A stretch of DNA of 62,525 nt from a virus. Of this stretch, positions 51,473-52,160 are shown piece after piece (positions within the stretch are counted from its first letter, which is position 1; each line of letters starts with the position of its first letter). The notes under the pieces are model-generated. The model did not search any database and was not told where the DNA came from. It saw only the letters and a program-made list of their open reading frames with translations. Location of the stretch: the IMG/VR virus record IMGVR_UViG_3300029672_000003. One strand, given 5' to 3'. The position numbers were made by a program, and so were the translations under genes.

Positions 51473-51829
51473 TCATTCAGCTTTGGTCGGTTCGGATGAT
51501 TCCTTTTCTTTTTCTTTGCTGTAATCAGTGTCAAATGTGATATAGGTAATACCGTCATCGTCATCAGACTCACTGTTATAATTATGATCTACGATCTCTT
51601 CTGTATACTCCTGCCACTCCCCATCTATTTTTGTTCCTATATAAATAAGCAGCAATCCAATCAATACAGGTATGGCAGTAACCGGATACTCTGTTGCATC
51701 AATGCAGATGCAAAACAGAAAAACAACGGTGCCTATCATTTCAATTACCTTTGCTAATTTCTTCATAGACACCTCACTCCTACCACTTATAGGAACCATT
51801 GGCAATCTCATCACCATACAAGGAAACAA
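51473..51829 (-). CDS. Two-TM membrane protein with acidic tail (probable start MKKLAK at 51763)
   Basis: IGTVVFLFCICIDA / AIPVLIGLLLIYIG. Confidence 0.5.
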   Translation of the reverse strand: MFPCMVMRLPMVPISGRSEVSMKKLAKVIEMIGTVVFLFCICIDATEYPVTAIPVLIGLLLIYIGTKIDGEWQEYTEEIVDHNYNSESDDDDGITYITFDTDYSKEKEKESSEPTKAE

Positions 51830-52160
51830 AATCTGTTATTAATGCGATAAACTCTGAATTTGTCGGTTTTCCTTTTTCCACTGAAACCGTATAGCCAAAA
51901 ATTTTGTTGATCGCATTTGTATTGCCATTTGTCCAAGTAACTTCTATCGCGTGCCGGATTGATCTTTCTACTCTCAAGGCTGTATCGCTGTTTTCTTCTG
52001 CAATTTCAGTGTAAAGTCCTTTAACAATGTGGATAAGTTTACTTCTGTTTTCAAGACATTTCTCAACTGCACTGATTATGTAACCATAACCCTTAAGGCT
52101 ATGTTTTACGCCGATCTGATCTAATGTCTTTCTTAAAGCAATGTTCATTTGTCTATCCAT
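51780..52160 (-). CDS. Stand-alone Spo0A C-terminal (DNA-binding) domain protein, no receiver domain
   Basis: GVKHSLKGYGYIISAV...LRVERSIRHAIEVTWTNGNTNAINKIFGYTVSVEKGKPTNSEFIALI aligns almost motif-for-motif with B. subtilis Spo0A residues about 150-255. Confidence 0.9.
   Translation of the reverse strand: MDRQMNIALRKTLDQIGVKHSLKGYGYIISAVEKCLENRSKLIHIVKGLYTEIAEENSDTALRVERSIRHAIEVTWTNGNTNAINKIFGYTVSVEKGKPTNSEFIALITDFVSLYGDEIANGSYKW

Follow-up and report, generated by a model that had tools for sequence, protein, structure and literature searches.

We analysed a viral DNA of 62,525 nucleotides, the IMG/VR record IMGVR_UViG_3300029672_000003 (here called the window, at its full length), and focused on the gene at positions 51780-52160 of its minus strand. 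This gene encodes a stand-alone Spo0A_C protein of 126 amino acids (aa), that is, the effector and DNA-binding part of the sporulation regulator Spo0A with no receiver domain in front of it. The protein is a member of the PF08769 Spo0A_C family and of the class of phage-carried truncated spo0A genes. As for its role, the explanation that we favour as a whole, with modest confidence, is that it would be a host-mimicking, signal-blind Spo0A effector which is expressed at lytic onset and derails sporulation.

Identity of the protein and absence of the receiver

The open reading frame (ORF) is preceded by a ribosome-binding site (RBS), AGGAGG, which can be read from the sequence at 52166-52171 (minus strand), 5 nt 5' of the ATG. 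The same 126-aa product was also found in independent gene calls made on public contigs. An in-frame stop codon lies just 5' of the ORF, therefore it has no possible N-terminal extension. The original prediction had placed the ORF at exactly these coordinates but had left the strand, which is the minus one, unstated.

Regarding the family, the Pfam profile PF08769 matched the protein with E=6.8e-34 and 116.4 bits, the gathering cut-off being 25 bits, and the alignment covered profile positions 3-102 of 104. This was the profile search that the original prediction had called for, and it extends over nearly the whole model. The Spo0A C-terminal domains in the PDB were matched as well (1FC3 with E=4e-27 and 1LQ1 with E=9e-27) by residues 5-113 of the phage protein. 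The AlphaFold2 model (pLDDT 88, pTM 0.83) has the expected helices, and when it was compared with the PDB by Foldseek, the matches were chains of 1LQ1 and 1FC3 only, with TM scores of 0.75-0.90 (normalised to the target) and rmsd of 1.4-2.5 Å; the six-helix fold with a helix-turn-helix (HTH) seen in these two structures is present in the model. The assignment of the ORF to the Spo0A C-terminal effector domain is thus borne out by profile, structure and fold alike, far above the level of chance. Furthermore, all the motifs which had been quoted for it, RVERSIRHAIEVTW, FGYTVS and KGKPTNSEFIALI, occur in the translated ORF, and the 1LQ1 chain agrees with the B. subtilis strings given beside them. 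Among the PHROGs, the protein matched the stand-alone family phrog_24603 (E=3.7e-21, positions 4-102 of 111) and phrog_37855 (E=8.3e-29, positions 165-267 of 278). Both are annotated as 'unknown function', and near-identical proteins in NR carry the name 'Spo0A C terminal [Caudoviricetes sp.]'.

The N-terminal receiver, reported from the start as lacking, is indeed wholly absent. TIGR02875, the Spo0A equivalog model of NCBIfam, aligned to the phage protein only through its positions 147-255 of 262 and scored 116.2 bits against a cut-off of 200; this partial alignment with a score below the cut-off is a quantitative signature of the absent receiver. No receiver-like sequence was found anywhere in the window by tblastn with 25 Spo0A N-terminal domains (best E=0.28), and family searches gave no response-regulator match in the two upstream ORFs, those of the antirepressor Ant and of orf91. 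A hidden or split receiver is therefore excluded. As a third line of evidence against a receiver, we took the 12-nt gap between the stop codon of the upstream antirepressor and the start of Spo0A_C, which was found in 76 of the 79 related loci; counts over 75 to 80 relatives refer here and below to the best 80 of the 214 confirmed IMG/VR matches. Because the receiver, the TIGR02875 score and the native C-terminus all fail, the protein is not a Spo0A orthologue. Moreover, having no input domain, it cannot sense, and the suggestion that it might 'sense' sporulation has to be given up.

The ORF orf91 (52203-52478, minus strand; no family matches) is an accessory cassette that separates Ant from Spo0A_C in this genome only, being absent from all 80 IMG/VR relatives. 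We considered whether it could be a separate input domain with homology to the N-terminal extensions in the fused proteins P0126 and P0131 (a Rosetta-stone relation), and excluded this. Comparison of orf91 with these extensions gave no match (BLASTP E=0.11 and 0.86, hhalign probability 1.3%), and its only homologues were close ones (n=23), none of them fused to Spo0A_C. In the relative L130, orf91 sits in the slot with no Spo0A_C beside it.

Lineage, DNA-reading residues and distribution

A HMMER scan of 1.84 billion representatives yielded 7,533 clusters at E<=1e-3. Among the best 150 of these 7,533, a receiver was present in 54 representatives only. The 96 receiver-less ones comprised 13 stand-alone proteins, 52 with a short non-receiver N-terminal extension, 25 with 2-4 Spo0A_C domains in tandem and 6 with a long N-terminal extension in which no receiver was detectable, and metagenomic gene calls that were cut short may account for some of the short forms. 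The domain of the phage protein is 45-49% identical to every full-length Spo0A compared (45% to that of B. subtilis) and shares 53-67% identity with six relatives that lack the receiver (P0124, P0126, P0129, P0131, P0138 and P0140). A C-terminal tail, TDF[IV]SL..EI..G.Y.[FW], is common to this clade and absent from bacterial Spo0A; in the AlphaFold2 model it is predicted to lengthen the last helix to residue 120 (helix 101-120). From these comparisons we read the phage Spo0A_C as an old, separate receiver-less lineage. A recent capture from the host is ruled out, since the identity to all full-length Spo0A is only 45-49% and the nearest relatives are all receiver-less.

Two of the receiver-less architectures deserve a separate mention. 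Many Spo0A_C proteins (about 52 of the 150) are 155-200 aa long, with a non-receiver N-terminal extension of ~50-90 aa, and complete examples were found at 8150-8461 of L013 and 10001-10309 of L028 (Clostridium sp. CAG:389 and a Lachnospiraceae metagenome-assembled genome, MAG). Proteins with 2-4 tandem Spo0A_C domains and no receiver included P0121-P0125, P0136, P0150 and those of L160. In the latter, two adjacent tandem genes (8001-9365 and 9534-10922, 454 and 462 aa) lie on a bacterial chromosome, as indicated by uvrC, glmS, bofA and serS, and not on a phage. We found no description of this tandem receiver-less architecture in the literature.

In order to compare residues, we used the 54 columns whose conservation reaches 80% or more across 75 full-length Spo0A domains. 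Residue numbers follow the B. subtilis protein, which we take to be 267 aa long. The mutant names in PMC9195935 agree with this numbering. Of the 54 near-invariant columns, 39 are kept in the phage protein. Those of the recognition helix are kept (R211, V212, E213, R214, I216, R217, H218, A219, I220, E221 and W224, the motif RVERxIRHAIE..W), as are the motif KGKPTNSEFIA (K244-A254), G227, F236-T239 and D258. Furthermore, the residues corresponding to E213, R214 and R217 do not vary among members of the clade that are only 54-66% identical. The 15 near-invariant positions that have changed are T158R, H162D, P167K, A168H, H169S, I170L, R177I, I180V, T194V, P199T, T207D, S210L, A215S, A223T and R226N.

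Spo0A reads G2, C4 and G5 of the 0A box TGTCGAA, and the isolated DNA-binding domains (DBDs) of the B. subtilis and C. difficile proteins bind genuine targets without phosphorylation, that of C. difficile with a KD below 50 nM (PMC3485338). The premise of the original prediction, that an isolated Spo0A DBD binds DNA independently of phosphorylation, is thus documented. Given the conserved recognition residues and this behaviour of isolated DBDs, the best-supported inference is that the phage protein would recognise 0A-like boxes.

The C-terminus is different. The native activation segment (A257-D-K-L-R...) is absent, and the phage protein has T-D-F-V-S-L followed by the clade-specific extension. 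Across the clade, position 259 is an invariant F (K259 to F), a residue found there in 0% of the full-length Spo0A, T predominates at position 257 (A257 to T), and position 162 has either D or N (H162 to D/N). The B. subtilis substitutions A257V and A257E, like a loss of the final 15 residues, stop sporulation but leave abrB repression intact, and A257V has the suppressors H162R and L174F (PMC9195935). With its changes at H162, A257 and the C-terminus, the clade has therefore rebuilt precisely the patch on which the split between activation and repression depends in B. subtilis.

Regarding the distribution, the best 80 IMG/VR matches carry Spo0A_C genes 91-98% identical to this one, on contigs mostly of 30-62 kb. 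Within ~6% of the phage Spo0A_C lie more than 1,100 protein clusters (defined at 90% identity), some of them on at least 1,000 contigs, and variants occur on contigs of up to 1.2 Mb. The block of Spo0A_C, a membrane protein, SSB, orf85 and SbcC was found in 78-80 of the 80 loci: the gene for the 97-aa membrane protein is co-conserved with Spo0A_C in 78, and the recombination and replication block from SSB on is kept in 79-80. Upstream, Ant is mosaic among the 80 loci, with a median identity of 46%. The dN/dS of Spo0A_C, estimated across 26 distinct alleles, is ~0.15, which on this estimate places the gene under purifying selection.

Sister phages which we reached via their sigma factor carry Spo0A_C in 21 of 35 informative loci, and these include alleles of 59-71% identity in the same slot. 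In L112, L120 and L151 there is no Spo0A_C, and the gene of the membrane protein comes directly after Ant. This presence and absence in syntenic sisters, together with the selection, indicates that Spo0A_C is auxiliary, a cassette outside the core functions of the phage.

As to the host, a syntenic prophage on a contig of 141 kb, from an uncultured Roseburia MAG (L001), carries a 97%-identical Spo0A_C and is colinear with the window across 42-60 kb. The only deposited phage with DNA similarity was Roseburia phage Jekyll, in the tail spike gene. The core genome of Roseburia intestinalis includes spo0A and the sporulation sigmas, and spores of this species have been seen by transmission electron microscopy (PMC11913394). 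No cultured phage carrying Spo0A_C was found; the INPHARED matches were 13 unannotated gut 'Bacteriophage sp.' contigs, all below 60% identity. We propose that the cassette is carried by temperate phages of ~60 kb which infect Roseburia-like Lachnospiraceae and form an abundant group.

Candidate role and competing explanations

The gene is part of a minus-strand string of early genes that reads leftward as small ORFs, Ant, orf91, Spo0A_C, the 97-aa membrane protein, SSB, orf85, the SbcC-like ATPase, RecT, the sigma factor and onward, a layout reproduced by public gene calls on other contigs. Ant (52475-53326, minus strand), 5' of Spo0A_C in the same operon, is an AntA-type antirepressor of 283 aa (PF08346 E=4e-12, phrog_373), whose start agrees with public gene calls. 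A consensus scan placed a putative sigma-70-type early promoter (TTGACA-16-TATAAT, 12/12) at 54664-54691 of the minus strand, at the head of the operon with Ant and Spo0A_C. Divergent from this operon is a cI-like HTH_3 repressor gene (54764-55114, plus strand; PF01381 E=2e-14, phrog_8), for which the same kind of scan gave a promoter-like site at 54704-54731. The near-perfect divergent pair of sigma-70-type promoters at 54664-54731 is predicted to mark the genetic switch.

We propose that Spo0A_C may be an auxiliary, host-mimicking regulator, carried as an optional cassette directly behind the antirepressor in the early operon. Judging from the operon structure, it would be made at lytic commitment, be it upon infection or upon induction. 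Without the inhibitory receiver it would bind host 0A boxes whatever the state of the phosphorelay, as suggested by the invariant recognition helix and by isolated DBDs. The Spo0A regulon would then be occupied or mis-timed, so that the infected cell could not finish sporulation and would stay a productive host. Spo0A_C may in this way be an anti-dormancy factor, possibly together with the sporulation-type sigma factor of the phage, and not a trigger of spore formation. The idea put forward originally, that the protein switches on or blocks 0A-box promoters and so manipulates sporulation, is plausible on the sequence evidence. The direction of the effect, that is, to derail or to induce, is the least certain and most speculative step. 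Derailing seems more likely because the gene is deployed with an antirepressor, the activation patch is remodelled, the phage sigma factors tested so far lower the spore yield and lysogeny is already a route into spores; the remodelled C-terminal patch in particular favours 'block or derail' over 'switch on'.

Such a role would matter because in many gut Firmicutes, among them Roseburia and other butyrate producers, sporulation governs how the bacteria persist and pass between people, and because dormancy is a refuge from phages. A signal-blind phage copy of the domain with which the master regulator binds DNA would be a direct viral means to alter spore numbers, and the cassette is so common (more than 1,100 clusters) that even a modest effect could matter ecologically.

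Several points weigh against this proposal. The HTH segment 194-226 has a net charge of -2 in the phage protein, whereas 56 full-length domains range from -1 to +5 with a median of +3, so constitutive high-affinity binding is not guaranteed. Some of the 15 substitutions may fall on contacts with the DNA backbone, in which case affinity and specificity would differ from those of Spo0A. The core that activates sigma-A (G227 and F236-G-Y-T-V240) is retained together with D258, so activation would be possible. Cooperative binding may be weak without the dimerisation function of the receiver. The timing of expression is deduced from gene order and consensus promoters, and we found no experimental test of any phage Spo0A_C in the literature. 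In addition, Spo0A_C belongs to the accessory genes and is lacking in sister phages, which qualifies any reading in terms of sporulation control.

The sigma factor of this phage (46126-46719, minus strand; 197 aa, with regions 2 and 4, PF04542 and PF04545) is encoded ~5 kb 3' in the same early string. Its best NCBIfam matches were SigK (1e-26) and SigBFG (1.5e-25), then SigF, SigG and SigE, all of them below the equivalog cut-offs, and its best PDB match was sigma-F, 1L0O; by these comparisons it is most similar to the sporulation sigmas SigK/F/G/E. Phage sporulation-type sigma factors expressed in B. subtilis brought the spore yield down by up to 99%, according to the citation of that work in PMC10294663. 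An obligate partnership between Spo0A_C and the sigma factor was rejected: 14 of the 35 informative sigma-bearing loci have no Spo0A_C, and the Roseburia prophage L001 has Spo0A_C and no sigma factor. Two homologues of sporulation regulators are nevertheless present in one phage, and their co-occurrence is not discussed in the published surveys that we consulted.

The lineage may also be more than Spo0A without a receiver. We tentatively entertain a reading in which the protein is an evolved dominant-negative mimic, a repressor-only anti-Spo0A that would sit on host 0A boxes and block the entry into sporulation, deployed with the antirepressor at lytic commitment. The residues that read the bases are kept, the C-terminal helix and the H162/A257 patch appear rebuilt and the HTH flank is acidic, a combination which would suit such a mimic. 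If true, it would be a dedicated counter-measure to dormancy as a refuge from phages.

The opposite outcome, a constitutive activator, seems unlikely to us. Here the early sporulation promoters (the equivalents of spoIIA, spoIIE and spoIIG) would be turned on regardless of nutrients and the phage genome would be trapped in the spore and preserved there. What keeps this alternative alive is the retained FGYTV/G227 core with D258; receiver-less Spo0A fragments do bypass phosphorylation, and the entrapment of phage genomes in spores via Spo0A and 0A boxes is known, as far as the discussion of PMC12991052 recounts it. However, coupling to an antirepressor in a lytic early operon means commitment away from dormancy, a temperate phage is already carried into spores by lysogeny, and the C-terminal patch that is specific to activation has been remodelled. 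The reduced spore yield reported for the phage sporulation sigmas tested, again as cited in PMC10294663, points in the same direction.

We consider it distinctly improbable that the protein acts away from sporulation promoters, either as a decoy that titrates the sigma subunit of RNA polymerase or other partners of the Spo0A C-domain, or as a blocker of host chromosome replication at the 0A boxes of oriC. Spo0A is said to bind oriC, in work attributed to Castilla-Llorente in 2006 and Boonstra in 2013. The acidic HTH and the 15 substitutions could weaken DNA binding, the clade-specific extension of the C-terminal helix (predicted 101-120) suggests a new protein-protein surface, and the gene adjoins replication and recombination genes. 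Nevertheless, a pure protein decoy would have no need of recognition residues that stay invariant in a clade 54-66% identical.

Similarly doubtful is the explanation that the domain has been co-opted as the phage's own transcription factor, acting on phage promoters, perhaps with the phage sigma factor, and not on host genes. The gene does lie in a regulatory early region with a sigma factor 5 kb downstream, and one perfect 0A box is found in an ultra-conserved block beside the immunity region. However, a search of the phage genome for 0A boxes, which the original prediction had recommended, revealed no enrichment and if anything a slight depletion: 6 perfect boxes against 8.06 expected, and 162 with at most one mismatch against 188 expected. 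Enrichment was accordingly discarded, and 5 of the 6 perfect boxes lie within genes. The sole intergenic one, located by sequence scan at 55484-55490 (minus strand), makes up an imperfect palindrome together with ATCGACA (55515-55521) and is kept in 74 of 75 relatives. We rejected this conservation as a sign of function. The surrounding ~450 bp are 96-100% identical throughout, so that the box is no more conserved than its flanks, and it is retained alike in phages with Spo0A_C (15/15) and without it (12/12). Being kept equally in phages that lack the cassette, the box is uninformative on the phage Spo0A_C and is probably not linked to that gene. Moreover, the sister phages without the gene keep the layout, and 14 of the 35 phages with a sigma factor do without Spo0A_C. 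The phage genome is thus an unlikely main target of the protein on these counts, and the lack of enrichment leaves host DNA as the default candidate.

Finally, the idea of a host spo0A fragment carried by accident, as a dead remnant or an assembly contamination, has in its favour only that the gene is shorter than spo0A, and it is already refuted by the intact ORF with a good RBS and the whole domain, by the dN/dS of ~0.15, by the identical position in 80 IMG/VR phage contigs and the more than 1,100 protein clusters, and by an identity of 45-49% to any full-length Spo0A, too low for a recent host fragment.

Genome surroundings and comparison with known systems

The ends of the window, 1-99 and 62427-62525, are an exact 99-nt overlap, which indicates a circularly closed assembly with a true length of ~62,426 bp (~62.4 kb). 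Structural and packaging genes are present (large terminase, portal, major capsid, tape measure and tail fibres), and so are an integrase, DnaB/DnaD-type replication proteins, RecT, the SbcC-like ATPase and SSB. The window is the genome of a temperate siphovirus-like phage. Immediately around Spo0A_C, the gene of the small membrane protein (51473-51766, minus strand; supported by the sequence, an RBS and gene calls) begins 13 nt 3' of it, and SSB (50778-51404, minus strand; PF00436 E=1.4e-16) is the first gene of the recombination and replication block formed by SSB, orf85, the SbcC-like ATPase and RecT. A known defence or exclusion module was also considered for this locus and rejected, since PADLOC gave no defence or exclusion match for Spo0A_C, the membrane protein, orf91 or orf85.

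The ultra-conserved block next to the immunity region is a non-coding stretch (~55250-55700), 96-100% identical in 75 of the 80 otherwise mosaic relatives and more conserved than the surrounding coding genes. Within it are a terminator-like hairpin (55639-55679), the palindrome TCGACA..TGTCGA and a predicted strong minus-strand promoter (55325 to 55297), which would drive an ORF of 46-51 aa convergent on cI. The fold of its minus-strand RNA has a z-score of -3.8, and no Rfam match to a known RNA was found in the block.

Other features of the genome were noted in passing. The early/middle genes are separated from the packaging module by three clustered tRNA genes (Ser-TGA, Ser-GCT and Tyr-GTA; 22513-22864, minus strand), and the tyrosine integrase (31543-32745, minus strand) is in the middle of the early/middle minus-strand string, away from the cI switch. 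Further Ant/Rha regulators are found at 61176-61877, 62038-62493 and 26577-27251, all on the minus strand. Those among the tail genes encode an Ant-like protein of 233 aa and, as a partial ORF, a Rha-like one; in the middle region there is a full Phage_pRha protein, so that the phage has at least 3 regulators of the Ant/Rha families. In the region of 34913-35868 and 33992-34840 (minus strand), a gene resembling PAPS reductase, beside an N6/N4 DNA methylase, is spread over two overlapping ORFs; positions 5-128 of the Pfam model match 35347-35868 and positions 132-173 match 34913-35359, which could reflect a frameshift or a genuine split. PAPS reductase also figures in the published list of phage 'sporulation' genes.

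Regarding known systems, a phage-borne receiver-less Spo0A is already known and is no new concept. In 2019, an enrichment of PF08769 was reported on mobile elements of the gut (PMC6907783), and Schwartz et al. 2023 (mBio, PMC10294663) described, in a set of 29 sequences, gut-phage spo0A homologues that are cut down to the effector domain and proposed to be independent of host signals; a review of November 2025 lists phage spo0A as 'not validated'. The present gene shares with that set the effector domain alone, the viral genome and the same hypothesis of signal independence, as well as, probably, a gut spore-former as host, and it shows no difference in kind. What is added here is the early cassette coupled to Ant, the presence/absence polymorphism, the Roseburia link, the estimate of selection, the clade tail, the acidic HTH and the co-resident sigma factor. 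The locus is therefore a well-defined, abundant and naturally polymorphic test case for the published hypothesis.

With bacterial Spo0A (TIGR02875), the phage protein has in common the six-helix effector fold (TM up to 0.90), a nearly identical recognition helix and KGKPTNSEFIA. However, it has no receiver or phospho-acceptor, it is encoded in an early operon, it is only 45-49% identical, and it has 15 near-invariant positions changed, a remodelled C-terminus and an acidic HTH.

The sad67 deletion allele, a receiver-less Spo0A that Ireton and colleagues are said to have described in 1993, reportedly relieves the inhibition and bypasses phosphorylation. The isolated Spo0A-DBD studied in the laboratory is alike in that loss of the receiver lifts the inhibition, phosphorylation is bypassed and 0A-box targets are bound (PMC3485338). 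These, however, are laboratory truncations with the native host C-terminus, whereas the phage protein is a natural, diverged lineage.

The phage sporulation-type sigma factors (Schwartz, Lehmkuhl & Lennon 2022, mSphere) are likewise phage homologues of sporulation regulators and, as cited in PMC10294663, lower the spore yield; they belong to a different family, act at a later step and have no obligate link to Spo0A_C (21/35 loci). Lastly, in entrapment of the phi29/SPO1 type, as outlined in the discussion of PMC12991052, host Spo0A acts on 0A boxes in phage genomes, and the Spo0A/0A-box axis likewise joins phage development to sporulation. According to that outline, the sites are those of the phage and the protein that of the host, whereas here the protein is the phage's and its own genome is not enriched in sites.

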